Positions 9,615 through 47,194 of a stretch of DNA of 64,000 bases are shown here, piece by piece. The position numbers and the translations under genes are program-made. Positions within the stretch are counted from its first letter, which is position 1. Every line of letters starts with the position of its first letter. The DNA is from Patescibacteria group bacterium (lineage in GTDB: Bacteria; Patescibacteriota; Patescibacteriia; JACRDY01): positions 39,572 to 103,571 of the forward strand of contig JBAZLA010000002.1 in NCBI GenBank assembly GCA_041650515.1, given 5' to 3'. The notes under the pieces are model-generated. The model did not search any database. It was not told the origin of the DNA and saw only the letters and a program-made list of their open reading frames with translations.

Positions 9615-10137
9615 AGTATATAGGTCTTAGTATGCAGTATGCGGGAAAATTAAACAATTTTTAATAAAAGATTTAGATGATTTTAATGCCTAGTTTTTTA
9701 TTATTCTAATATTAATTAATAAATACAACTTTATGTCGGAAAAAATCAAATCCTTCACCGATCTTATAGCCTGGCAAAGGGCCCGCGAGCTAGTCTTGAC
9801 AATTTATAAAGCGACTGAAAATTTTCCTAAAAAAGAAATCTACGGATTGACAGACCAAATGCGCCGAGCTGCCGTCTCGGTTACTTCTAATATCGCCGAA
9901 GGCTTTAGCCGAAAATCCAAAGCCGACAAGGCCCATTTCTACACTATAGCTAAAAGTTCACTAGTTGAGCTACAGAACCAACTGATTATTGCCAAAGATA
10001 TTAACTATCTAGAAAATAACTATTATCAAGCAACCTACATTATAACTATTAATTGCAGCAAACTATTAGTTGGTTTAATCCGCGCCGCTGAAGCAAAACA
10101 GTCTTCCCCGCATACTACATACTAAGACCTGCATACT
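9615..10137 (+). mobile_element. IVS-like cassette: a 31-bp imperfect inverted-repeat pair (9615..9645 and 10107..10137) flanking a four-helix-bundle protein gene, inserted between tRNA-Glu and murF
   Basis: AGTATATAGGTCTTAGTATGCAGTATGCGGG on the left, and on the right the reverse complement of cccgcatactacatactaagacctgcatact. The two match at 28 of 31 positions. Confidence 0.45.
9733..10125 (+). CDS. Four-helix-bundle protein (23S rRNA intervening-sequence protein family; same fold family as DGR Avd)
   Basis: 130 aa. FTDLIAWQRARELVL, DQMRRAAVSVTSNIAEG and AKSSLVELQNQL match the family (PF05635/TIGR02436) closely. Confidence 0.85.
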   Translation: MSEKIKSFTDLIAWQRARELVLTIYKATENFPKKEIYGLTDQMRRAAVSVTSNIAEGFSRKSKADKAHFYTIAKSSLVELQNQLIIAKDINYLENNYYQATYIITINCSKLLVGLIRAAEAKQSSPHTTY

Positions 10138-11488: not shown

Positions 11489-13258
11489 CTACTGAGCGGC
11501 ATCCGGTGGAATTTGATAATAGCTAGCTAAAAATTTACCAATTTCACCAAAAAACGGCACGGCCGTACCTTCGGCCCACTGACTGGTTTGCGGACTATCA
11601 AAACGAGCGACCACCACTAACTGCGGATCCGAGACTGGAAAAAATCCGCCAAAAGTATGAATTGTCTTACCGCTATTATAGTCTCCAGTACTAGGATTAG
11701 CCACCTGCGCCGTGCCGGTTTTGCCAGCGACATAATAACCAGGAATTGCCGCTCGTTTGGCATGGCCTTCTTGCACCACTTGGACTAGCATACCAGAGAT
11801 TAGAACAGAAGTACGTGGGCTGATTACCTGACGAATCTCTTGTGGCTCGGTTCTAATCTCAATTCCCGACGGATCGATCACCCTATCGACTATATATGGC
11901 CTCATTAATTTACCACCATTAGCTAGAGCCGAAAAAGCCGTCGCCACCTGCAGCGGCGTCACCATTATCCCCTGGCCAAACGAGGCAGTGACGGGATAGA
12001 TTTCGCCTTTTTTATAAAGTGAAGCGATGGTGCCTGGCGACTCACCTTCGAGGGGTATCCCCGATAAAACACCAAAACCAAATTTTTCGACATAGTCACG
12101 AAAGGTCTCTGGCCCGGCTTGACGCATGGCAAAGATAGCACCGGTATTGAGAGAAAATTTTAAAACATCAGTCATAGTCTGAGTGCCATGCGCTAAAAGA
12201 TCAGAATTTTTAATCGAGTACTGACCAATCTTAACTTCACCAGTGTCCTCGTAAGTACTCTCTGGTGTCACTTTACCCTGATCCAGGGCGATCGACATAG
12301 TGATTGGTTTAAAAACCGATCCCGGCTCATAAGCTGCAAAAACAGTCGGATTATTATAATATTTGATATTTTCTACATTGCCATAATCATTAGGGTCAAA
12401 ATTCGGCCAACCACACATGGCTAAGATCGCCCCGGTCTTAGGATCCATCACCACCACGCTCGCCCCTTCGGCCTTGTAACGCTCGACCGCTTCATCTAGT
12501 TTTTGACAAAGCACGGTCTGGACTGTGTCATCAATGGTTAGAACTAAACTTGAGCCATTTTCTGGACTAGCATAATCATGTTCACCAACACCAATTAAGC
12601 TCCCGCTGGCGTCTCGCTCAGACTTAACAAAACCGGCCTGACCAGATATTTGAGAATTGTAGTAACCCTCTAAACCGTATTGCCCGACTAGTTTATCATC
12701 AACAAAACCAACAAAGCCCAAAACATGACTGCCAATATTATTCTCTGGATAATAACGCGATTTTTCCTTAACCCACTTGATGCCTGCCAAGTTAAGCTCG
12801 GCAACTTTTTGGATTTTTTCTTCGGTCACCCGATGAGCCAAAGGCTCATAAGGATCATTATATTTTGCTAGCTGAGTTTGGATGCGATCAGCCACCGCTT
12901 GGGGTAAAGCCAAGACCGAATTAAGCCTTTCTGTTGTTGCCCCTGGATCATCGATGGCATAAGTCTGACCATAGATTAAATAAAAATCACGATTGGTCGC
13001 CACGGGAAAAAGTTTGGGGTTGTCTTTATCTTGAACCCGCGTATCCTGGGTATAAATAATCCCTCGATCCGGTAACAACTCTTGGTAGATATCATGTTGT
13101 TGCGATGCCAGTTCCAAATAATCCCGATGATGTAATATTTGTAGCCAAAATAATCGGCCAATAATAATTAGTCCAAATAAAAATATCCCTCCCCAGAGGA
13201 TCCGGATCCGCATCGGGTGGTCAGTATAAATTTTTCTGGTTATCATTCGATGTTTCAT
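11489..13258 (-). CDS. Penicillin-binding protein (class B transpeptidase, FtsI/PBP2-like)
   Basis: 589 aa with an N-terminal TM anchor. The transpeptidase motifs SVFK (SxxK), SxN and KTGT are present. Confidence 0.85.
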   Translation of the reverse strand: MKHRMITRKIYTDHPMRIRILWGGIFLFGLIIIGRLFWLQILHHRDYLELASQQHDIYQELLPDRGIIYTQDTRVQDKDNPKLFPVATNRDFYLIYGQTYAIDDPGATTERLNSVLALPQAVADRIQTQLAKYNDPYEPLAHRVTEEKIQKVAELNLAGIKWVKEKSRYYPENNIGSHVLGFVGFVDDKLVGQYGLEGYYNSQISGQAGFVKSERDASGSLIGVGEHDYASPENGSSLVLTIDDTVQTVLCQKLDEAVERYKAEGASVVVMDPKTGAILAMCGWPNFDPNDYGNVENIKYYNNPTVFAAYEPGSVFKPITMSIALDQGKVTPESTYEDTGEVKIGQYSIKNSDLLAHGTQTMTDVLKFSLNTGAIFAMRQAGPETFRDYVEKFGFGVLSGIPLEGESPGTIASLYKKGEIYPVTASFGQGIMVTPLQVATAFSALANGGKLMRPYIVDRVIDPSGIEIRTEPQEIRQVISPRTSVLISGMLVQVVQEGHAKRAAIPGYYVAGKTGTAQVANPSTGDYNSGKTIHTFGGFFPVSDPQLVVVARFDSPQTSQWAEGTAVPFFGEIGKFLASYYQIPPDAAQ

Positions 13259-13346
13259 ATGGCTATTTTAGCAAAATTTTGTCTTATCTCCAAACAAAAA
13301 TCGGGGTGATATTTTTTACTTACCTATTATTAACTCTCCGAATCTA

Positions 13347-13535
13347 TAAATCTAGTTGGGGCCTGGGGCGGATGCGGCGCAGAGTCCCGACCCGGCCTCT
13401 TTGGTCTTTCCTTAGGGGCGGGACGGGTAGAACGAACTAAAGTTCAACAATGAACCGCGCCTCATTATGTCTCTTGGCGCAAAGAGACATAATCCCCAGG
13501 ACTTTTTTGCTACTTTTTTAGTCATAAAAAAGTAG
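13347..13535 (+). repeat. Structured repeat element, copy A. It is related to 35507..35646 and is a candidate ncRNA or MITE-like unit.
   Basis: Shares GGGGyCTGGGGCGrATrCGGCGCArAGTCCCG ... GGGACGGGTAGAACGAA ... AACAATGA ... CCCCAG ... TTTTTTGCTACTTTTTT-(6 nt)-AAAAAAGTAG with copy B. The closing helix shows compensatory changes. Confidence 0.6.
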
Positions 13536-13572
13536 ATTATTACGTAGATGAGACAGAGATTCTTCGACTGCG

Positions 13573-13590
13573 CCCCGATGTACATCGGGG
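13573..13590. repeat. CCCCGATG-TA-CATCGGGG palindrome. The same core as the 17940..17993 element.
   Basis: Direct reading. The core is shared with the long hairpin downstream of rplA. Confidence 0.5.
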
Positions 13591-13637
13591 CTCCGCTCAG
13601 AATGACAAATGAGAAACCAATTAAAAAGTAAAAAACA

Positions 13638-13672
13638 AAAAAACAGTTCAAATTAAATCTGAGCTGTTTTTT
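13638..13672. terminator. Bidirectional Rho-independent terminator (A-run, AACAGTTCA / TGAGCTGTT hairpin, T-run)
   Basis: 9-bp stem with one G-U pair, flanked by A7 and T7. It lies 8 nt downstream of the 13680..14042 minus-strand gene. Confidence 0.6.
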
Positions 13673-13679
13673 AAAAAAA

Positions 13680-14042
13680 TTAAATAACCACCAATAAAAC
13701 CAAGACCAAAACAATCACTACCACGAAGGTTAGAGCGCTGATTCCAACAGTTGCCAGCGCTTCTTTATATTTTTTCTCAAAGGCTAAATAGGCTGGATAA
13801 CCAAAAACAACTATTCCAGAGATAGCTACCGAAAAAACGAAAAAAAGCAGATAAAAAAAGAAGAACAAAATCGGTGGTGTCGACCCGGCTGAATTCAACT
13901 GCAAGCGAGTAACTATTAACTCAACTATCGGCAAGACTGCTCCAACTACCAACAAACAATAAGCGCTCTCGACCAAAGCCGCTAGCACTCCCCATTTCCA
14001 GTGGGCTGGCTGGTCATGATGAAAAAATTTTTTTAAGCACAT
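13680..14042 (-). CDS. Hypothetical membrane protein (3-4 TM)
   Basis: 120-aa hydrophobic ORF followed by a terminator. The overlapping ORF 13412..13714 was rejected. Confidence 0.45.
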   Translation of the reverse strand: MCLKKFFHHDQPAHWKWGVLAALVESAYCLLVVGAVLPIVELIVTRLQLNSAGSTPPILFFFFYLLFFVFSVAISGIVVFGYPAYLAFEKKYKEALATVGISALTFVVVIVLVLVLLVVI

Positions 14043-14059
14043 AAGATTTAAAAAAAATA

Positions 14060-14383
14060 TTATGTAAACATTTCTCCGCTAATTTTTTCCCAATCATCTA
14101 AACCATCGTTCCATTTATAAGTAGTCAGTTTATAAGTAAACTCGTCGGGCGAATAAACATAATCAACTTTTACTCCCGCACCAATCCGCCGCGAAGTAGT
14201 AGTTTTTTTGTCCAAAACTAACGGCCGAACGGCATATTCTAGCCTAATCTTACCTAAAGGGCTATTAAACTCCAAAATCTCCACTGTTCCTGGACCATCT
14301 TCAAACTCCATTACTTCTTCGCTGTCCAAAGTAAATTTGATTTTAGCCTCGGCTTTCAATTCTTGCCATCGTTCAGGAGTCAT
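14060..14383 (-). CDS. Hypothetical protein (107 aa)
   Basis: ORF only. An AACTTTATAACTTTATAA leader motif precedes its ATG. Confidence 0.45.
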   Translation of the reverse strand: MTPERWQELKAEAKIKFTLDSEEVMEFEDGPGTVEILEFNSPLGKIRLEYAVRPLVLDKKTTTSRRIGAGVKVDYVYSPDEFTYKLTTYKWNDGLDDWEKISGEMFT

Positions 14384-14433
14384 GGAATCAGGTTAAAAAA
14401 TTATAAAGTTATAAAGTTTGTTCCAAGTAAGCG

Positions 14434-14477
14434 AAGCGAGTCGAAGGAGCCTGCCCTGAGGAGCAAAGCGACGAAGG
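14434..14477. repeat. Direct repeats AAGCGAGTCGAAGG / AAGCGACGAAGG downstream of pilT
   Basis: Direct reading of the sequence. Confidence 0.4.
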
Positions 14478-14478
14478 G

Positions 14479-15531
14479 TTAAAAATAAGTTCCCACCCGT
14501 TCGGCATTAAGCGATCGATTTTGATAGACCTGTTTTGAGATAATGCCCTTATTTAATAAATTCTTAAGTGAATTATTCATACTAATCATCCCCTCGGCTT
14601 TGCTCGTTTGAATAACCGATGGAATATGAGCAGTCTTATTTTGTCGGATCAGGTTAGACACCGCAGCATTATTGACCATAATCTCGCGAGCTACGGCAAT
14701 TTTATCATCAACAGTCGGTACCAACTGTTGCGTCACCACCGCCGCCAAAGCACCAGCCAACTGAATTAAAATCTGATGCTGGCGCTCCGAATCAAATGAG
14801 TCGACAATTCGTTCTAGAGTTTCGGCGGCCGAATTAGTATGCAAGGTAGAAAAAACTAAATGGCCAGTTTCCGCCGCTGTTAGCGCCGCTGCCATAGTCT
14901 CGGGATCGCGCATTTCGCCAATTAAAATCACATTGGGATCTTGGCGTAAAGCGTATTTTAAGCCGCTGTAAAAAGACTTGGTATCGCGTCCCACTTCTCG
15001 CTGCTCGATGACGCTATTTTTCTTAGGATAGATAAATTCGATCGGGTCCTCCAGGGTAATAATATGGGCTCGGCGCTCCATATTAATAATATTAATCATC
15101 ACCGCTAGAGTAGTTGATTTACCGCTACCGCTCGGGCCAGTAACCAAGATAAAACCTTTATTCAGATGAGTTAATTCATACAGTTTATCTTCTAAACCGA
15201 TAAACTCCGGCTCAGGGATATCTTTGGGTACAACGCGAGCCGACAAGGCAATCTGCCCTAACTGATAATGCAGATTAATACGAAAACGGGTGCTATCAAC
15301 CTGATGAGCCAGATCCAAATCCCATTCATTTTCAAAACGTTCAATTTTTTCTTTGTTAAGTAAGGTAAAAGCCGCTTTGGTTAATTCATCATTATTTATA
15401 ATCGGCGCCTTTGGATCTAAATCTTTAAGCAAACCATAAATACGCATGATCGGCCGCTCGCCGGCAATTAGGTGAACGTCGGACGCGCCCTTGGCAATGG
15501 CCTGTAAAAAAATCTGGTTAAGGTCAAACAT
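14479..15531 (-). CDS. pilT: Type IV pilus retraction ATPase PilT
   Basis: 350 aa with Walker A GPSGSGKSTT, and the secretion-ATPase Asp and His boxes. Confidence 0.85.
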   Translation of the reverse strand: MFDLNQIFLQAIAKGASDVHLIAGERPIMRIYGLLKDLDPKAPIINNDELTKAAFTLLNKEKIERFENEWDLDLAHQVDSTRFRINLHYQLGQIALSARVVPKDIPEPEFIGLEDKLYELTHLNKGFILVTGPSGSGKSTTLAVMINIINMERRAHIITLEDPIEFIYPKKNSVIEQREVGRDTKSFYSGLKYALRQDPNVILIGEMRDPETMAAALTAAETGHLVFSTLHTNSAAETLERIVDSFDSERQHQILIQLAGALAAVVTQQLVPTVDDKIAVAREIMVNNAAVSNLIRQNKTAHIPSVIQTSKAEGMISMNNSLKNLLNKGIISKQVYQNRSLNAERVGTYF

Positions 15532-15620
15532 AAAATTAGAGTAAAATTAACATTTTGAATAAAATTAACTATTATTATTCTACCATAAGAACAGCCCAGA
15601 TAGCTAGTGGCCGCCCACTC

Positions 15621-15649
15621 TTGACGAAAAACCGGTTATCCCCTATAAT
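15621..15649 (+). promoter_or_regulatory. Sigma70-like promoter (TTGACG, 17-nt spacer, TATAAT) for the secE-nusG-rplK-rplA operon
   Basis: Near-consensus hexamers with optimal spacing, about 70 nt upstream of secE. Confidence 0.55.
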
Positions 15650-15668
15650 TTAACCACAAATTTAAATT

Positions 15669-15686
15669 CCGCCTCCGGGCGGTTTT
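15669..15686 (+). promoter_or_regulatory. Leader hairpin CCGCC-tccg-GGCGG followed by TTTT, between the promoter and secE. Possible attenuator.
   Basis: Direct reading of the sequence. Confidence 0.35.
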
Positions 15687-15717
15687 AAGGATGAAAATAT
15701 TAAACTAACTAGCTACT

Positions 15718-15915
15718 ATGTCATTAACTAACAACCGCGTGGTAAATTACTTTAAAGAAGCTAAAATTGAGCTTAAAAAAGTCGCCTGGCCCACCCGTAA
15801 AGAAACTACCAAGCATACTCTATTGGTGATTGGCATCAGCTTGGCGCTGGCCGCTTTTTTGGGCGCTTTGGACTATTTTTTTACCATTGGTTTTGAAAAA
15901 ATAATTGAACGCTAA
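15718..15915 (+). CDS. secE: Preprotein translocase subunit SecE
   Basis: 65 aa with a single TM. VAWPTRKET matches the SecE signature. Confidence 0.85.
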   Translation: MSLTNNRVVNYFKEAKIELKKVAWPTRKETTKHTLLVIGISLALAAFLGALDYFFTIGFEKIIER

Positions 15916-15971
15916 ATTGGTAGTCAATGGCTAATAACTAAAAAAATTTTAGCCACTAGCCACTATAATAT

Positions 15972-16517
15972 ATGCCAAAGCAAACATTAAACCTCGGCCG
16001 ACGCTTCTACGTCATTCATACCTATTCTGGTTATGAAGAAAATGTGGTCGAGAATCTCAAGCAAAGAATCAAATCGATGAACATGGAAGATCGGATCTTT
16101 AATGTTCTGATTCCCACCGAGAAAAAAATTAAGATCAAAAACGGCAAACGCAAGGTGGTCACCGAAAAAATCTTTCCTGGCTACATTCTAGTCGAGATGG
16201 AAGTAACTGACGACTCGTGGTATGTCGTTCGCAACACCCCCAATGTTACCGGTTTTATCGGCTCTGGCACTATCCCAACACCAATTTCCCAAAAGGAGAT
16301 GGACTCACTTAAGAAAAGAATGGGCGTTGAGGAACCAACTTATAAAATCGACGTTAGTATCAACCAGGCAATCCGAATCATCGATGGACCATTCAAGGGT
16401 TTTGAAGGTAAAATATCAGAAATCGACGAGACTCACGGCAAAGTTAAAGCCTTGGTTTCGATGTTTGGCCGCGAGACTCCAGTTGAGCTTGATTTTCTAC
16501 AAGTTAAAAAACTTTAA
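15972..16517 (+). CDS. nusG: Transcription termination/antitermination factor NusG
   Basis: WYVIHTYSGYE NGN domain and a C-terminal KOW domain. Confidence 0.9.
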   Translation: MPKQTLNLGRRFYVIHTYSGYEENVVENLKQRIKSMNMEDRIFNVLIPTEKKIKIKNGKRKVVTEKIFPGYILVEMEVTDDSWYVVRNTPNVTGFIGSGTIPTPISQKEMDSLKKRMGVEEPTYKIDVSINQAIRIIDGPFKGFEGKISEIDETHGKVKALVSMFGRETPVELDFLQVKKL

Positions 16518-16628
16518 TAATAAGCTGTCAGTGGTAGAGGGTCGGTGGTGCTGCTTCTAGCCATCAACCACTTCGCCCAAAGGGCGATCCGCCTCTGGCA
16601 AAAATCACTACTATCAATCACTAATTTT

Positions 16629-17054
16629 ATGGCCAAAAAGATAAAAACGTTAATCAAACTCCAAATCCCGGCCGCTCAAGCTAATCCAGCGCCACCAGTC
16701 GGCCCAGCCTTGGGTCAACATGGCGTTAATATTGGTGAATTCTGTACTAAATTTAACGAAGCCACCAAAAAACTAGCTGGCGATATTATCCCAGTCGAGA
16801 TTACAGTTTATGAAGATCGCAGTTACACTTTTAAGCTTAAAACTCCACCAGCGGCCGAACTGTTAAAAAAAGCCGCCGGCATCCAAAAAGGTTCGGGCAA
16901 ACCCCTACAAGAAAAAATCGGCAAAGTAACCAAAGCTCAGGTCCGTGAAATTGCTGAGAAAAAAATGGAAGATCTTAACGCCGGTAGTGTCGAAGCCGCC
17001 ATGCGGATGATCGAAGGCACCGCTCGTCAGATGGGTTTAACAGTTGAAGGCTAA
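16629..17054 (+). CDS. rplK: 50S ribosomal protein L11
   Basis: [34 protein letters not shown]. The start was moved to the ATG at 16629. The N-terminal extension in the ORF track is not conserved. Confidence 0.9.
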
Positions 17055-17137
17055 TTTTTGTCATCTTTTATATCATTAATTAAGGTGGGAGATTCGATAT
17101 CAAACTCGGATCATTAATACCACATAAATACAACTTT

Positions 17138-17821
17138 ATGTCCAAAAGAGGTAAACGCTACACTGATGTAGCCAGCCAGATCGATCGAACCAAAACCTAC
17201 AGCCTAGAAGAGGCAGTCGATCTGATTAAGCAAGCTCCTAAAGAAAAATTTGATGCTTCTATTGAGGTCCACCTGCACCTCGGCATCGATACCAAAAAAA
17301 GTGACCAACAGATTCGTTCAACGATTGTCCTACCCCATGGTACTGGCAAAACTAAAAAAATCGCGGCTTTTGTTGAACCAGAAAAAGAAAAAGAAGCTAA
17401 AGACGCCGGCGCGGCTCTGGTTGGTGGTGAACAACTAATCAACCAAATTAAGCAAACCGGCAAATGCGATTTTGAAATCGCTGTTGCCACCCCCACTATG
17501 ATGCCCAAAATGGCCGCGATCGCCAAGATCCTAGGCCCCAAGGGTCTGATGCCCTCACCTAAAAACGAGACTATCGCTCCGAATGTAAAAAAAATAATTG
17601 AAGAATTAGGTAAGGGTAAAGTAGCTTTTAAGAGCGACAATACGGGCAACATCCACCAATTAATTGGCAAGGTTTCTTTTGAGAAAAAACAATTATTAGA
17701 AAATCTCCAAATATTTCTGGATGCAGTCAAAAAAGTTAAACCGTCTTCGAGCAAAGGTGTTTTTATTAAAAGTGCCACGCTTTGCACTACGATGAGTCCG
17801 GGAATCAAAATTGCCGTCTAA
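17138..17821 (+). CDS. rplA: 50S ribosomal protein L1
   Basis: 227 aa. MSKRGKRY...AKDAGA..VGG match L1. Confidence 0.9.
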   Translation: MSKRGKRYTDVASQIDRTKTYSLEEAVDLIKQAPKEKFDASIEVHLHLGIDTKKSDQQIRSTIVLPHGTGKTKKIAAFVEPEKEKEAKDAGAALVGGEQLINQIKQTGKCDFEIAVATPTMMPKMAAIAKILGPKGLMPSPKNETIAPNVKKIIEELGKGKVAFKSDNTGNIHQLIGKVSFEKKQLLENLQIFLDAVKKVKPSSSKGVFIKSATLCTTMSPGIKIAV

Positions 17822-17939
17822 ACTTTCCATCAGCTATATATTAAAAACCCACGTCAGTTCGACGATGGGTTTTTAAGTTATGAAATCAAAAATCTAGAAA
17901 ATTGAGGGGCGTAAACTTCCCCAAAGCCAAATCAATGCT

Positions 17940-17993
17940 TGTCATCCCGAGTGAAGCCCCGATGTAATCATCGGGGCTTCACTCGGGATGACA
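17940..17993. repeat. Perfect ~24-25-bp inverted repeat (TGTCATCCCGAGTGAAGCCCCGATG / taatc / ATCGGGGCTTCACTCGGGATGACA). REP-like element or bidirectional terminator.
   Basis: Direct reading. A related TGTCATCGCGAG element lies at 21940..22033. Confidence 0.7.
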
Positions 17994-18058
17994 GTGGGAT
18001 AAAAGCGACCCTGTGGAGTTTACCATAAACAATTTGATAAACTCTCTAACTTTCAACT

Positions 18059-18859
18059 TTATAACAACTTTAGTATCTCTTGGTGCAATTTGGTGCCATT
18101 GCTCGCTACAAACTGCGGGGCTAGATCACTAGTAGCGCGACTATTAAAATCAGTAATTTTACCTCCAGCTTCGCGGACCATCAATTTACCACCCAGATAA
18201 TCATAAATCTCGTTACCTCGGTTGATCACTACTTCTAGTTTACCAGCTGCTAAGAGAGAAAAATCAATCGCCGGCGACCAATTATTGACTACTCGTTTAG
18301 TCTGCTTCTGACCAGACTTAACTAAAAAACCAGCTAAATTTTTGTTCCAATCACCATAACTACCAACATAGGCAACCGTTGAACGTTTGATATCCGTTTG
18401 TTTATTAACCCTCAACCGACGATTACCTGAATAAGCACCGCCACCCTCGACTGCCCAATAAACCTGACCGGACATTGGCAAATAAGTTACCGATCTAATC
18501 ACCTCTTTATTCTGGAGTAAAGAAATAGCCACTGAGAAATTAGTTAGGCCTAAAATAAAATTATTTGAACCATCAAGCGGATCAATAACCAGGGTATACT
18601 CTGAGCCTTTATTAATTATCCCCCGCTCTTCACTGTGTAAATTATAGCTAGGAAAGCTCTGACTTAAATATTTTAGGATTTTAGCTTCTGACTCTAAATC
18701 AGCCTTCGATACAAAATCAGCAATAGTGGTCTTCTCTTTTAGCTTTAAATCCTGCCCAAAATACTTTTTGAGCATTTCGCCACCAGCCTTGGCCGCCTGA
18801 ACAATTTTTTTACTCATTAGATCCATAATGACGTTATTATAAAATAGTATCGTTTCCAA
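18059..18859 (-). CDS. Inositol monophosphatase family protein (SuhB/CysQ-like)
   Basis: VIDPLDGSNNF metal-binding motif. The true start may be the internal MDLMSKK. Confidence 0.75.
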   Translation of the reverse strand: METILFYNNVIMDLMSKKIVQAAKAGGEMLKKYFGQDLKLKEKTTIADFVSKADLESEAKILKYLSQSFPSYNLHSEERGIINKGSEYTLVIDPLDGSNNFILGLTNFSVAISLLQNKEVIRSVTYLPMSGQVYWAVEGGGAYSGNRRLRVNKQTDIKRSTVAYVGSYGDWNKNLAGFLVKSGQKQTKRVVNNWSPAIDFSLLAAGKLEVVINRGNEIYDYLGGKLMVREAGGKITDFNSRATSDLAPQFVASNGTKLHQEILKLL

Positions 18860-18984
18860 GGCAACCTTTGCCCTCGACTTTATAACTTTTTACTTTGTAA
18901 CTTTTAACTTTTCTCTTTTGACTTTATCTCCCCTTTTGCTAAAATGGAATAACTATCTAAACTTTTAAAACTATCAACTATTTT

Positions 18985-19479
18985 ATGACCGAGGAACAAA
19001 AGTACATCCGACCGAGTTGGGATGAATATTTTATGGGCATAGCCAAGGCCGCCGCCAGCCGAGCTACTTGCGATCGTGGTCGTTCAGGTTGCTGTATCGC
19101 TCGCGACAAACGCATCTTAGTCACCGGTTATGTTGGTTCGCCAATGAATTGCCCACACTGTGATGAGGTCGGCCACGAGCTGCATACTGTTCGCCATCTT
19201 GATGGCCATGAAACCCAGCACTGTATTCGCACCACTCACGCTGAACAAAACGCCATCTGCCAAGCCGCTCTCCTCGGCGTTTCACTCAATGGTGCCACTA
19301 TCTATTGCAAAATGACTCCCTGCTATGTTTGCGCCAAGATGATTATTAATTGCGGCATCAAACGAGTCGTCTGTGAGTTTGACTATCATGATGGTGAAAG
19401 AAGCAAAGAAATTTTTTCTCAAGCCGGAGTAGAATACTGTCTCCTTAATAACCAAACCGTCCAATACGAAAACATGTAA
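18985..19479 (+). CDS. dCMP deaminase (ComEB/Dcd-like zinc deaminase)
   Basis: HAEQNAI and PCYVCAKMII zinc-ligand motifs (HxE ... PCxxC). Confidence 0.85.
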   Translation: MTEEQKYIRPSWDEYFMGIAKAAASRATCDRGRSGCCIARDKRILVTGYVGSPMNCPHCDEVGHELHTVRHLDGHETQHCIRTTHAEQNAICQAALLGVSLNGATIYCKMTPCYVCAKMIINCGIKRVVCEFDYHDGERSKEIFSQAGVEYCLLNNQTVQYENM

Positions 19480-19482
19480 TTT

Positions 19483-20037
19483 ATGCCAACTAAGATCATT
19501 TTGGGCTTTGCCGGACTGCTTTGTAGCGGTAAGGGCACGGCCGCGGAATACTTTAAAATTAACCATGGCGCGACCACTTACCGCTTTTCGACCATTCTCC
19601 GCGATTTACTCCATCGAGTCTACCTAGAAGAGAGTCGAGACAATATGATTCGCATTTCCGAATGTGTCCGTCATGAATTTGGTGAAGATATCTTATCAAA
19701 AGCCATTGCTGGCGATGCCGCTAAAGACACTAACAATCTAGTGATTGTTGAAGGAATCCGCCGCATGACCGATATTGAACATCTAGCCAAGTTGCCTAAT
19801 TTTATTTTAATCGAAATTTTTGCTGACCCACAGAAGCGCTACCAACGGCTAGTCCAACGCGGTGAAAACAGCGACGACAAAACTAAAACCTATGCCCAAT
19901 TTTTGGCCGATCACCAACGTTCTACCGAACTAAGTATTTTAGATGTTATTAAACATGTGCAGGAACGAATTGATAATAATGGTGATAAAGATAAACTCCA
20001 TAAACAGTTAGACCAGTTACTAACTAAGTATCAATGA
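19483..20037 (+). CDS. P-loop nucleotide kinase, putative dNMP kinase
   Basis: G-loop GLLCSGKGT resembles the phage T4 dNMP-kinase-type GVKRSGKDT. It is embedded in the dTTP cluster. Confidence 0.55.
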   Translation: MPTKIILGFAGLLCSGKGTAAEYFKINHGATTYRFSTILRDLLHRVYLEESRDNMIRISECVRHEFGEDILSKAIAGDAAKDTNNLVIVEGIRRMTDIEHLAKLPNFILIEIFADPQKRYQRLVQRGENSDDKTKTYAQFLADHQRSTELSILDVIKHVQERIDNNGDKDKLHKQLDQLLTKYQ

Positions 20038-20456
20038 AAATTCTAATTAAAAAACTCCGTCCCGAGGCAATTATCCCTAGCTACGCTCACCCCGGTGACA
20101 GTGGGCTTGACCTTTATTCTCTGGATGAATACGAGTTACAGCCAGGCGAACGACGATTATTTTTCTTGGGTTTTGCCCTAGAATTCCCGGCTGGCTACGT
20201 GGCCACGGTCAAAGATAAGAGCAGCTTGCCCAAAAACGCTGGCCTCCACACCATGGGCGGGGTCTTTGATTGTGGTTTTCGCGGCGAATATAATGTGATG
20301 CTAATAAATCTAGGCGACCAGCCATATAAAATTTTAACCGGCGACAAAATCGCCCAATTAGTTATTTTGCCAGTCGCCCAAGCCGAGCTAGAAGAAACCA
20401 CGGAATTAAACGATAGTAGCCGCGGCCTGGGTCAATTTGGCTCCACCGGTCGCTAA
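20034..20456 (+). CDS. dut: dUTP diphosphatase
   Basis: GDSGLDLY and RGLGQFGSTG motifs. Confidence 0.9.
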   Translation: MKILIKKLRPEAIIPSYAHPGDSGLDLYSLDEYELQPGERRLFFLGFALEFPAGYVATVKDKSSLPKNAGLHTMGGVFDCGFRGEYNVMLINLGDQPYKILTGDKIAQLVILPVAQAELEETTELNDSSRGLGQFGSTGR

Positions 20457-20460
20457 ACGT

Positions 20461-21333
20461 ATGAAACAATATTTAGACATCGTCAAAACCATTCTGGAAA
20501 AGGGCGAAAAAAAGGAAGACCGCACCGGCACCGGCACCTTGGTCGTACCTGGGATAATTTTTCAGCATGATATGGCTACCGGCTTTCCTCTACTCACCAC
20601 CAAAAAAGTGCCTTATCGGCTAGTCGCTAGTGAGTTGGAATTTTTTATCAAAGGAATAGCGGATAAAAAATGGCTCCAGGAAAGGAACAATCATATTTGG
20701 GATGAATGGTGTACACCACTTAAAGTAACTTATAGACATGATGAAGAAACTAAGAAAAAAATGTTCGAGGAAAGAGACTTAGGAGCAATTTACGGCTGGG
20801 AATGGCGTCATTTTGGAGCTGAGTATAAAAGTTATGACACCGACTATACCGGCCAAGGTGTTGATCAATTAAAAAGATTAGTCAACGATATTAAGACCAC
20901 ACCAGAAAGCCGACAATTACTAGTTTTGGCCTGGAACCCAGTTGATCGCGACAAGGTCGTCCCCCCTTATTGCCATTTTGGTTTTCAAGTAACAATAGTG
21001 AATAAAAGACTTAACCTCTTTTGGTTTCAGAGATCAATTGATGTTGCTCTGGGGCTACCATTTAATATCGCTAGCTACGCGACGATGCTCCATCTGTTAG
21101 CCAAAGAGACCGGCTATCAAGAAGGTATACTAACCGGCATGCTAACCGACACTCATATTTATCTTAATCATATTAATAACCTAAAAGAACAATTAACTCG
21201 CGACCCCAATAAATATCCCCTGCCCCGACTAGAAACCAAAAACTTTACTTCAATTTTTGATTGGCAATATACTGATACCGAAGTGATCGGCTATGAAAGT
21301 TACCCAACTATTAAATTTGATATCGCCGTTTAA
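20461..21333 (+). CDS. thyA: Thymidylate synthase ThyA
   Basis: MKQYLDIV start, LVLAWNPVD..PPCH, and DVALGLPFNIASYA. The upstream extension to 20437 was rejected because it overlaps dut. Confidence 0.9.
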   Translation: MKQYLDIVKTILEKGEKKEDRTGTGTLVVPGIIFQHDMATGFPLLTTKKVPYRLVASELEFFIKGIADKKWLQERNNHIWDEWCTPLKVTYRHDEETKKKMFEERDLGAIYGWEWRHFGAEYKSYDTDYTGQGVDQLKRLVNDIKTTPESRQLLVLAWNPVDRDKVVPPYCHFGFQVTIVNKRLNLFWFQRSIDVALGLPFNIASYATMLHLLAKETGYQEGILTGMLTDTHIYLNHINNLKEQLTRDPNKYPLPRLETKNFTSIFDWQYTDTEVIGYESYPTIKFDIAV

Positions 21334-21414
21334 TTAAGTAGCTAGGACGATGGGAGGCTAGGACAATAGGTAAATACCTAACCTCATATCTTCCTATCGT
21401 CCTATCCTCCTAAT

Positions 21415-21930
21415 ATGAAGTTAACCCTAATGATGGCCATGACCCTTGACGGGATCATTGCCAAAGACAAAAATCAAAACGCCGACTGGACCAGCCCGGC
21501 CGATAAAAAAATTTTTGTAGCCCAGACTAAAAAAACTGGCGCCATTATTATGGGCGACACGACTTATTTTTTGATTGGTAAACCTCTACCCGGCCGGTTC
21601 AACCTAGTCTTATCTTTTACCCCAGAAAAATATAAAAAGCAGGAAATCCCCGGCACCTTAGAATTTTTTAAAGGTACGCCAGCCGAGGTTTTAAAATACG
21701 TAGAAAATAAAGGTTTTCAATCCGCTATCTTGGGCGGTGGCGCTGGCACCAATAGCGCTTTCTTAGCTGCTGGTTTAGTGAATGAGATAATGATCACGGT
21801 TGAACCTAAAATTTTTGGCCGCGGCCTCAATTTTACCGAAGGCCAAGATTTGGATCTAAATTTGGAATTGATTGAAGCTAAACCAATCGGCGACAATGCG
21901 GTGCAGCTGAGATACAAAGTGATTAAATAA
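21415..21930 (+). CDS. Dihydrofolate reductase family protein (RibD_C-like DHFR)
   Basis: 171 aa. MTLDGIIAKD...IMGDTTY and GGGAGTNSAFL match the DHFR/RibD C-terminal fold. Confidence 0.7.
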   Translation: MKLTLMMAMTLDGIIAKDKNQNADWTSPADKKIFVAQTKKTGAIIMGDTTYFLIGKPLPGRFNLVLSFTPEKYKKQEIPGTLEFFKGTPAEVLKYVENKGFQSAILGGGAGTNSAFLAAGLVNEIMITVEPKIFGRGLNFTEGQDLDLNLELIEAKPIGDNAVQLRYKVIK

Positions 21931-37318: not shown

Positions 37319-38086
37319 ATGAAATACTCAGACCGCGCCAAACTTTGCACCAACCCCACCGCTATCAAACTTTTAAATTTGATGGAGCAAAAGCAAACTA
37401 ACCTCGCTATTGCCGCTGACATTACCACTAGCGCTGAACTGCTTAAAATCGCTGACGAGTTGGGGCCAGAGATTTGTATTTTAAAAACCCACATCGATAT
37501 TATTACCGATTTTACGCCCGAATTACCAACTAAGCTCCAAACCTTAGCCCAAAAACATAATTTCTTATTTTTTGAAGATCGCAAATTTGCTGACATCGGC
37601 AATACGGTTAAATATCAATATCAAGATGGTATCTATCATATTGCTGCTTGGGCTGACATCGTTAACGCCCACACCGTACCCGGACCTGGCATTATTGCCG
37701 GCCTTAAAGAAATTGGCTTACCATTAGGTCGCGGCCTGCTGCTTCTGGCTGAAATGAGCTCAGCCGGCACTTTAGCTAAAGACAATTATACTGAAGAAAC
37801 TTTAAAGATGGCTCAAGAAAACTCTGACTTTGTTATTGGCTTTATTACCATGCGCCAACTGCTTGATGATCCTAAATTTATTAATCTGACTCCTGGCGTC
37901 CAGCTGCAAGCCGGCACCGACAAACTAGGCCAACAATATAACACGCCAGAAAAAGTAATCTTGGAACAAAAAAATGATATAATAATCGTCGGCCGTGGAA
38001 TTTATCAAGCCGCCGATCCCCTGGCCGAAGCCAAGAAGTATCGTGTCGCTGGCTGGCAAGCTTATCTAAAAAGATTAAAAAATTAA
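37319..38086 (+). CDS. pyrF: Orotidine-5'-phosphate decarboxylase
   Basis: LAIAADI...[10 protein letters not shown] (K..H..D catalytic region). Position within the pyr operon. Confidence 0.8.
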
Positions 38087-38102
38087 TTTTGAATCGCTAT
38101 TT

Positions 38103-39113
38103 ATGCCTTTTAAATTCATCTTCAAGGATCTATTCTTAGAGGAGGTTAAAAAAACCGGCTACGGACTGGTTAACTGTCACGCCCATCTAGACCGTGCCTA
38201 CACGGTCACCCCGGAAATCTGGCAGCAAGCATCAGCCCTAATGGAAGAAAAGTGGGTCTTGAATCGAGAAATTAAAAAAAGGCACACACCGGAGTCAATT
38301 CAAGAGCGACTAACCTTTTGCGTGGAAGATTTCATCCGCCAAGGTGCCACCGCCTGCCGGACATTTGTTGATGCCGATAGTATTGTCAACATGCTCGTAG
38401 TGGAAAATGCCGCTAAAGTACGAGAAAAATATAAAGGCAAATTTACCTTGCAACTTGCCCCCCAGCCCCTGGAAGGTTTTTTGAATGAAGATAAAACTGA
38501 TTTTGATAAAACCAAAACCGATCTTTTTGAAGCCGCCTGTGATATCTGTGATGTTGTTGGCGGTTTACCCTCCCGCGATCGCGCTCTACCCGGCGGCGAT
38601 AAAAAACACGCTGACTTCATCCTCTCGGTCGCCAAAAACTTAGACAAAAACATTGACATTCATATCGACCAAGAAAATAATCCTGATGAAAAAGATACTG
38701 AATGGCTATTGGACAAAATAATCAGATTCAAAATGCAAGGCCGAGTAAATCTCCTGCACGCTCTCTCAGTCGCCTGCCAGCCAACTGCTGATCGTCAACG
38801 TATCTACAAAAAAATGATTGAAGCCGGCGTCAGTGTTGTTGTCTGCCCGAAAGCGGTAATTAGTATGAAACAACATCGGGATAAATTAGCACCAGTTCAC
38901 AATTCAATCGCTCAAGTCGATGAACTTATCGCCGCTGGTGTTAATGTCTGTCTTGGCACTGATAATATCTCTGACATTATTGTGCCCGAAGATAACGGCG
39001 ACTTATATGAAGAAATTTCGATGCTGGCTTCTGCCTGTCGATTCTACGATCTGCAAAAATTAGCTCAAATTGCTACTGTTAACGGTTATAAAGCCTTAAA
39101 ATTATCTAGATAA
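38103..39113 (+). CDS. Amidohydrolase-superfamily protein, cytosine-deaminase (CodA)-like
   Basis: HAHLD N-terminal metal motif, DIHIDQ and CLGTDN motifs. 336 aa. Confidence 0.55.
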   Translation: MPFKFIFKDLFLEEVKKTGYGLVNCHAHLDRAYTVTPEIWQQASALMEEKWVLNREIKKRHTPESIQERLTFCVEDFIRQGATACRTFVDADSIVNMLVVENAAKVREKYKGKFTLQLAPQPLEGFLNEDKTDFDKTKTDLFEAACDICDVVGGLPSRDRALPGGDKKHADFILSVAKNLDKNIDIHIDQENNPDEKDTEWLLDKIIRFKMQGRVNLLHALSVACQPTADRQRIYKKMIEAGVSVVVCPKAVISMKQHRDKLAPVHNSIAQVDELIAAGVNVCLGTDNISDIIVPEDNGDLYEEISMLASACRFYDLQKLAQIATVNGYKALKLSR

Positions 39114-47115: not shown

Positions 47116-47194
47116 AATTGTATAGTTATGAAGTTATAAAGTTATAAATCAAACTAACTTTATGACTTTCAGTTTTATAACTTTCAACTCATTC

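Follow-up and report, generated by a model that had tools for sequence, protein, structure and literature searches.

A 64-kb stretch of a Patescibacteria (candidate phyla radiation, CPR) metagenome-assembled genome (contig JBAZLA010000002.1; the whole stretch is called the window) carries two copies, A and B, of a structured intergenic element, both read directly on the + strand. On balance, we favour the view that this element is a functional, stand-alone structured RNA gene, restricted in lineage, with a paralogue in the pyrimidine biosynthesis (pyr) operon. Its multi-helix fold is maintained by compensatory substitutions, and its locus and orientation are conserved across deeply diverged genomes. 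The element is a genuine candidate for an RNA family not represented in Rfam 15, with a very narrow known range.

Two copies of a structured element

A two-copy structured repeat with a set of conserved blocks had been predicted from the window, and all of these blocks were present, in the same order, in both + strand copies: GGGGyCTGGGGCGrATrCGGCGCArAGTCCCG, GGGACGGGTAGAACGAA, AACAATGA, CCCCAG and a hairpin, CTACTTTTTT-N6-AAAAAAGTAG. The 27-nt block CTGGGGCGRATRCGGCGCARAGTCCCG was found exactly twice in the window (chance expectation 0.00), as was the 17-mer GGGACGGGTAGAACGAA (chance expectation 0.10), and pairwise alignment of A and B gave 80–82% column identity. A covariance model built from the two copies (R1) and run over the 64-kb window with its filters off returned only A (219.9 bits) and B (192.4 bits). 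The end originally given for copy B was right, but the start (35507) was not, because the 5' strand of the closing helix would be cut off there; the true start is at about 35489–35491 (TTGGGGTCTGGGG), some 17 nt further 5'. With these corrected limits, and with a copy from a related genome (L043, below) included, the element is 160–210 nt long and has six helices and a three-way junction. From TAAATC (13347 and 35480), about 9 nt before the helix, A and B are homologous. Its parts, all on the + strand, are as follows.

13356–13535, +: copy A, full element at the putatively ancestral locus, which is orthologous to those of the L043 and L033 copies.
35489–35646, +: copy B, full element lacking the extra hairpin of A, in the pyrK-pyrC spacer.
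13347–13357, + (B, 35480–35490): conserved 5' flank, TAAATCTAGTT in A and TAAATCCGATT in B, from the alignment; it may be a −10 box and transcription start region, or the edge of the copied segment.
13358–13368, + (B, 35491–35501): P0 (GGGG) and the P1 5' strand (CCTGGGG); across A, B and L043, P1 varies as C-G/U-A/U.G and as U-A/C-G.
13372–13380, + (B, 35505–35513): 5' strands of P2a (ATG) and P2b (GGCGC), with double compensatory changes in 3 of 3 and 3 of 5 pairs, respectively.
13384–13424, + (B, 35517–35559; about 110 nt in L043): P3 hairpin arm; its base, GTCCCG/CGGGAC, is kept between A and B, and its distal part is variable in sequence and length.
13425–13456, + (B, 35560–35592): purine-rich junction GGGTAGAACGAA and the small P4 hairpin (GTTC-AACAAT-GAAC); the motifs GGTAGA and ATGA are retained in all three full-length sequences.
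13457–13465, + (B, 35593–35601): 3' strands of P2b and P2a (GCGCC T CAT).
13466–13491, +: hairpin inserted in copy A only, TATGTCTCTT-GGCGCA-AAGAGACATA, with one strain single-nucleotide polymorphism (SNP) in the loop.
13494–13509, + (B, 35605–35620): P1 3' strand CCCCAGG, then the U-rich tract (ACTTTTTTG).
13510–13535, + (B, 35621–35646): 3' A/U-rich hairpin, CTACTTTTTT(A)/(T)AAAAAAGTAG, which covaries (TTACTTTCTG/CAGAAAGTAA in L043 and GTCCTTTCTT/AAGAAAGGAC in L033).
35472–35479, +: AAAAGTAG, immediately upstream of copy B, a direct repeat of the 3' hairpin arm (35639–35646).

The 3' hairpin, identical over 10 bp in A and B, and the extra internal hairpin of copy A (ATGTCTCTT/AAGAGACAT) were thus both found as predicted. 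The placing of both copies in non-coding DNA, in plus orientation, was upheld as well, with no conserved open reading frame (ORF) over the two copies. ORFs across A and B read the common block in different frames, and a 27-aa ORF that follows A is not conserved, the ORF at that place in L043 being three codons long; the element is therefore non-coding.

The known copy number is two in ~78 kb of the host genome and one in ~21.8 kb of L043. No third copy was present in ~14 kb of further sequence from other assemblies of the same strain, the one SNP that these add being that in the loop of the extra hairpin of A. An independent same-strain assembly, Logan contig SRR8542065_27291 (L038), begins at about window position 13419, so that its break falls within copy A, precisely where the common block GGGACGGGTAGAACGAA starts. 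Since A and B share no 31-mer, the cause may be a further copy of greater similarity, or a mixture of strains in that sample.

A fold maintained by compensatory substitutions

The fold was derived with RNAalifold from A and B and refined with the L043 sequence. In the predicted structure, the 5' GGGG forms P0 with the first bases of the 3' U-rich tract, mostly through G.U pairs. P1 (CCUGGGG/CCCCAGG) follows and, after a short internal loop, P2a (AUG/CAU) and P2b (GGCGC/GCGCC) lead to a predicted three-way junction. On one side of the junction, J2/3 (ARA) leads into P3, which has the base GUCCCG/CGGGAC and a free distal part; the other side is made up of the purine-rich strand GGGUAGAACGAA and P4, a 3–4-bp hairpin with AACAAUGA in its loop. 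An 11-bp A/U hairpin lies immediately 3' of the U-tract, and the additional 10-bp hairpin of A is inserted between P2a and P1. Folded as single sequences, both copies were more stable than their shuffles (z = −5.3 for A and −3.4 for B).

Between A and B there were five double compensatory changes and not one broken pair among 38. Compensation in the closing helix had been predicted and is real, but it is better put as an outer pair that is C-G in A and U-A in B; in addition, the C/U of A is matched by an inner C-G in B. When A, B and L043, the three full-length sequences, were aligned to R1, changes on both sides were seen in 18 of 42 pairs and 99.2% of cells were standard pairs, figures that are inflated because the alignment is fitted to the model. 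None of 500 shuffles reached this level, and slid controls gave 0–2 such pairs. RNAalifold run on a plain MAFFT alignment, which is not fitted to the model, recovered P0, P1 and P2a with the same compensatory changes. The element has, in short, an aptamer-like fold with covariation support. The helices compare as follows.

P1: A, CCUGGGG/CCCCAGG; B, UCUGGGG/CCCCAGA; L043, UCCGGGG/CCCCGGG.
P2a: A, AUG/CAU; B, AUA/UAU; L043, CAA/UUG.
P2b: A, GGCGC/GCGCC; B, GGCGC/GUGCC; L043, AGGCC/GGCCU.
3' hairpin: A and B, CUACUUUUUU/AAAAAAGUAG; L043, UUACUUUCUG/CAGAAAGUAA; L033, GUCCUUUCUU/AAGAAAGGAC.

Every base pair is intact in copy B in spite of an overall divergence from A of ~18%, which suggests that structural constraint still acts on B. 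Conservation is highest in the predicted unpaired junctions, while the distal part of P3 varies freely and the extra hairpin of A is optional.

Conservation at the PBP2 locus

A 420-nt gap separates the PBP2 gene (11489–13258, −) from a 120-aa ORF with a conserved 107-aa gene (13680–14383, −); it holds copy A, which is antisense to both flanking genes and has a bidirectional terminator ~105 nt downstream. The orthologous loci of relatives were retrieved through protein homologues. In one of them, L043, a 206-nt diverged homologue of the element was found at 9829–9624 (−), with an R1 score of 31.3 bits (E=5e-7). It lies between the same two genes as copy A and in the same orientation, and its flanks are orthologous to those of A (PBP2, 58% identity; 107-aa protein, 55%, E=3e-43). 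A second weak R1 match in L043 (4418–4525) was discarded as the end of rplA and its terminator. In another relative, L033, a truncated relic with P0, P1, a trace of P2a, the U-tract and a covarying A/U hairpin is present at the same locus, behind two inserted ORFs; it looks like the product of a deletion of the core. A and the L043 copy agree in synteny and orientation, as would be expected of a stand-alone gene.

The PBP2 proteins of L043, L033 and L035 are closer to each other than to that of the window. The presence of the element in both the window and L043 despite this grouping argues that it is ancestral to the group and was probably lost several times. The large serine recombinase gene of L033 (Resolvase, Recombinase and Zn-ribbon domains) adjoins the Mur ligase gene and is followed by small ORFs and two DNA methyltransferases; this region (13336–21767) has the look of an integrated mobile element or prophage, which the window lacks at that position.

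Searches for known families and further members

None of the searches assigned the element to a described RNA. At gathering threshold, Rfam 15 matched only a tRNA-Glu in the whole window; at E<=10, copies A, B and L043 gave noise matches on the A/U hairpin only, and none of the 4227 families fitted. ARAGORN called no tRNA or transfer-messenger RNA (tmRNA) at the element. Resemblances to group I introns, 5S, 6S and signal recognition particle (SRP) RNA failed in the Rfam scans or on comparison of topology. A diversity-generating retroelement template/variable repeat was also rejected, since A and B both lie outside coding genes and their differences are not adenine-specific.

An exact search for the two-block pattern GGGTAGAACGAA-N4-24-AACAATGA in 185,579 representative genomes gave six chance matches, none fitting the model, and the exact 17-mer GGGACGGGTAGAACGAA gave 20 chance matches in 241 million metagenome records and one in IMG/VR. 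Since A and B alone supplied these patterns, which would not have detected the L043 homologue, the negative results limit close relatives only. Comparison by blastn with phage and plasmid collections returned only the low-complexity hairpin, and regular-expression and descriptor searches of 46 sequences (45 loci and the window, 490 kb) returned the known copies only. The original prediction was to be given up if only the two copies were found and covariation was lacking. The exact-pattern scans did bring out no further members, which is half of that outcome, but the orthologue found through synteny overrides it. The proposal of an undescribed small RNA is supported by the negative Rfam result, the compensatory changes between A and B and, with much added weight, the diverged L043 orthologue.

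An RNA gene or a structured repeat

The element could instead be a selfish or neutral structured intergenic repeat, similar to repetitive extragenic palindromes (REP), bacterial interspersed mosaic elements (BIME) or miniature inverted-repeat transposable elements (MITE), and at most a decorated terminator or mRNA-end stabiliser. The GC-rich P1 and the U-tract would then act as a terminator, and the three-way core would be a passenger in its loop. We regard this as unlikely. The two copies occupy unrelated contexts, and the GC-rich P1 is followed within 0–2 nt by a U-rich tract in all four sequences. Yet a consensus terminator scan does not call P1, the 'loop' of which is 100–150 nt long (12 nt in the L033 relic) and the U-tract of which pairs with the 5' GGGG. 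If transcripts ended at the U-tract, covariation in the A/U hairpin beyond it would not be expected, yet it is seen; and the best conserved part is the unpaired junction, which is unexpected for a passenger loop.

A number of observations weigh against an RNA gene, and several of them suit a repeat. The distribution is patchy: the element is not at the PBP2 locus in L035, L036, L042 and L045 (four of seven related genomes), which have short spacers or another gene there. The L033 relic, reduced to P0/P1, U-tract and hairpin behind two inserted genes, resembles a plain terminator, and because the core has been lost the RNA is dispensable in L033. Other palindromic intergenic repeats lie directly next to copy A in the host genome, and the Logan contig breaks inside that copy. 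The gap between the 107-aa gene and PBP2 is a variable hot spot that holds a 120-aa ORF and the RNA in the window (13259–14059), 239-aa and 44-aa ORFs and the relic in L033 (8861–10000), a 122-aa gene in L045 (362–1029), the RNA alone in L043 (9524–10000) and almost nothing in L035, L036 and L042. A consensus scan found no canonical promoter or terminator for any copy; there are only weak −10-like boxes 7–11 nt upstream of GGGG (TATAAA, TAGTAA and, in L043, TGCTATAAC). The fold is built on three full-length sequences, two of them from one genome, and the interior of L043 (P3 and P4) is poorly aligned, with GGGGCG.G, GGUAGA and AUGA clearly in common there. To these must be added the inflated pair count and the chance matches of the two exact scans in representative genomes and metagenome records.

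Against a repeat stand its ends, its number and its position. No terminal inverted repeats are common to A and B: the imperfect 9-nt pair of A (AATCTAGTT/AAGTAGATT) has no counterpart at the ends of B. A genuine target-site duplication is lacking too, A having no flanking repeat and the repeat that flanks B (AAAAGTAG) being in its downstream copy the element's own conserved hairpin arm. REP and BIME units are single imperfect palindromes of 20–40 nt in high copy number, unlike this 160–210-nt element, of which the ~78 kb of host sequence yielded no copies beyond two. Locus and orientation are conserved where PBP2 has fallen to 58% identity. These findings, taken together, speak against the structured MITE-like element that the original prediction had offered as its second possibility.

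The strand

Most of the helices are Watson-Crick paired and would also form in the reverse complement, and the genes that flank copies A, L043 and L033 (for the 107-aa protein, PBP2 and a Mur ligase) are all on the strand opposite to the element. The minus strand might thus be the functional one, A and L043 being a structured leader or intercistronic element of the PBP2 (mrdA) mRNA, 100–170 nt upstream of the start codon, and copy B a non-functional or antisense by-product. On the strand of the flanking genes, the terminator of the upstream gene does precede the element, and the reverse strand of B folds equally well. However, A.C mismatches would take the place of the G.U pairs, which occur in P0 of all three full-length copies, once in the P1 of L043 and once in the P2b of B, and the minimum free energy of the reverse complement is worse by 8 kcal/mol for A and 13 kcal/mol for L043. 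In addition, B keeps every pair although it would be antisense inside an operon, and four relatives have PBP2 without such a leader. We consider a functional minus strand improbable. The folding models thus favour the + strand as the functional strand, without proving it.

Copy B in the pyr operon

Copy B fills the 181-nt spacer from pyrK (34676–35473) to pyrC (35655–36698) in an operon of the order pyrB, pyrI, pyrD, pyrK, [B], pyrC, pyrE, pyrF. It is in sense orientation, starts 15 nt past the pyrK stop codon and ends, with its hairpin, 8 nt before the pyrC ATG. B alone precedes a gene; what lies ahead of A and of the L043 copy is the end of a convergent gene. At the pyr locus, none of four relatives (L007, L010, L011 and L041) has the element. 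As B alone has the AAAAGTAG flank, A lies at a syntenic locus and the pyr spacers of these four relatives lack the element, A is to be taken as the probable original and B as the secondary copy. Because the downstream copy of the AAAAGTAG repeat is a conserved internal part of the element, a microhomology junction left by an illegitimate duplication accounts for the repeat better than a transposon target duplication does.

In the relative with the closest pyr locus, L007 (pyrC 82% identical), the pyrK-pyrC spacer holds a different, GC-rich three-hairpin repeat, a further point in favour of a repeat. This L007 element (9907–10000) is a 'cloverleaf' whose closing stem is CGGCGGC/GCCGCCG; the palindrome within it, GGGGCGATTCATGAATCGCCCC, recurs in near-identical form (GGGGCGGTTCATGAACCGCCC) in L045 (~360–400). 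The pyrK-pyrC spacer seems to attract structured repeats.

The position of copy B raises the question of a cis-acting sensor, riboswitch-like or dependent on a PyrR-like protein, that governs pyrC-pyrE-pyrF. Binding at the junction would stabilize P1, and either P1 and the U-tract would terminate transcription or the A/U hairpin would gate pyrC translation. The architecture is aptamer-like: P1 closes the structure, conserved purines are left unpaired in the three-way junction, and the distal stems vary. The two U6 tracts recall UTP-sensitive pyr attenuators, such as those of pyrBI and pyrE in Escherichia coli. We think a sensor quite unlikely, however. The apparently ancestral copies, A and L043, have no downstream gene on their own strand, the 27-aa ORF after A not being conserved, and a recurrent sense position in the 5' untranslated region of related genes was not found. 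The element is missing upstream of pyrC in the four relatives, including the neighbour with the 82% identical pyrC. No conserved alternative terminator/antiterminator pairing was found, although the A/U hairpin adjoins the pyrC ATG in B, and Rfam gave no match to a PyrR site.

A model for the element

The preferred reading is a small structured non-coding RNA gene read from the + strand and confined, as far as seen, to one Patescibacteria clade. Copy A would be the original gene, stand-alone and vertically inherited. Copy B would be a diverged paralogue, copied into the pyrK-pyrC spacer by illegitimate recombination at the 8-nt microhomology AAAAGTAG and presumably transcribed as part of the pyr operon. 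The RNA would consist of a long closing rod (P0, P1, P2a/b) that opens into the three-way junction, with the variable P3 arm on one side, the conserved purine-rich strand (GGUAGA...AUGA) and P4 on the other, and the A/U-rich hairpin after it. By likeness to orphan structured small RNAs, the element may work through its conserved unpaired junction, to which a protein or small molecule would bind. Expression of pyrC-pyrE-pyrF may be attenuated or insulated in the pyr copy by P1 together with the U-tract and the hairpin that abuts the pyrC start. This specific mechanism of junction binding and attenuation is put forward tentatively, and we would not be surprised to see it fail. Far more speculative is the idea that the three-way junction is a ligand-binding aptamer, with the pyr copy as a metabolite-responsive attenuator of pyrC-pyrE-pyrF and the stand-alone copies as ligand-responsive small RNAs. 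In that case, de novo pyrimidine synthesis, for which we know of no riboswitch class, would have one in this element.

Patescibacteria genomes are tiny and, to our knowledge and after a brief literature search, almost no non-coding RNAs have been described from them beyond the universal ones. The element is a candidate for lineage-specific RNA-based regulation in this group, as it is maintained by compensatory changes across genomes in which PBP2 is 58% identical, and its duplication into a nucleotide-biosynthesis operon strengthens the regulatory case. Two paralogues, one orthologue and one natural deletion derivative make up a ready test set. Even if it proved to be only a decorated terminator or repeat, it would document the recruitment of such sequences into operon spacers of reduced genomes.

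Other features of the window and related loci

A second, unrelated palindromic repeat family, GCCCCGATGTA..CATCGGGGCTyCrCTCrGrATGACA, was found at 13573–13609, just downstream of copy A, and at 17932–17985, downstream of rplA. The latter is a perfect palindrome with 24-bp arms; the one near copy A keeps just its right half intact. Similar 'TTCGACTCC...CGCTCAG' strings lie in intergenic DNA of L010 (89–127) and L011.

The 256-nt pyrB-pyrI spacer holds a tRNA-like sequence (33155–33245, −), also found in L007 (7570–7650); its T-arm GGGGTTCAATTCCCC and an acceptor-like stem are conserved between the two. It was not called by ARAGORN or by the Rfam tRNA model, and had sub-threshold matches to mascRNA (E=0.0026) and to the tmRNA 3' tRNA-like domain (E=8e-5). 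It could be a tRNA or tmRNA 3' remnant (an old att site) or an unusual tRNA-like RNA. In L007, carA and carB lie between pyrF and a downstream amidohydrolase (11689–17825). In the window, the amidohydrolase follows pyrF directly (37319–39113); carAB is thus missing from this operon, either moved elsewhere or lost.

Tandem AACTTT-type motifs (e.g. AACTTTATAACTTTCAACTTT) stand directly upstream of several start codons, including that of pyrB (18040–18060, 18880–18911, 32084–32127 and 47160–47190), and an identical ATAAATACAACTTTATG string occurs at two gene starts (9719–9735 and 17124–17140). No Shine-Dalgarno sequence was evident at starts preceded by either; the AACTTT-type motifs may be a lineage-specific promoter or translation-initiation signal.

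Comparison with known systems

Similar in size to 6S, SRP, Y and 5S RNA, the element shares with them a long closing rod formed from both ends, an internal opening and an apical arm. Its 5' 'bubble' side, however, is only 3–4 nt and does not mimic an open promoter. It also lacks the conserved motifs and Rfam matches of SRP, 5S and 6S RNA, and it is absent from several close relatives rather than universal.

With REP, BIME and MITE repeats it has in common that it is repeated, palindrome-rich, intergenic and patchy, and that it can take up operon spacers or terminator positions. It is much longer and multi-branched, it was seen at very low copy number, and it has neither common terminal inverted repeats nor a real target duplication. 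Unlike such repeats, it is conserved in locus and orientation between distant species, with conservation concentrated in unpaired junctions.

Like the pyr attenuators (Bacillus PyrR BL2/BL3; E. coli pyrBI and pyrE), copy B lies between two pyr cistrons, with a GC-rich helix and then U-tracts just ahead of the next gene. In contrast to them, the element has no PyrR-binding consensus, Rfam PyrR match, conserved antiterminator/terminator or leader peptide; it is not found in related pyr operons, and its probable ancestral copy is unrelated to pyr genes.

Among the systems compared, the orphan structured small RNAs (raiA motif RNA and the Breaker/Weinberg motifs) differ from the element in that it has no Rfam match, only three members so far and a very narrow range, and in that one of its paralogues is embedded in a biosynthetic operon. 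It resembles them in its covarying multi-helix fold of 150–210 nt, in its conserved unpaired junction nucleotides, variable distal stems and optional hairpins, and in being a stand-alone intergenic gene, lineage-restricted and with no assigned biochemical function.

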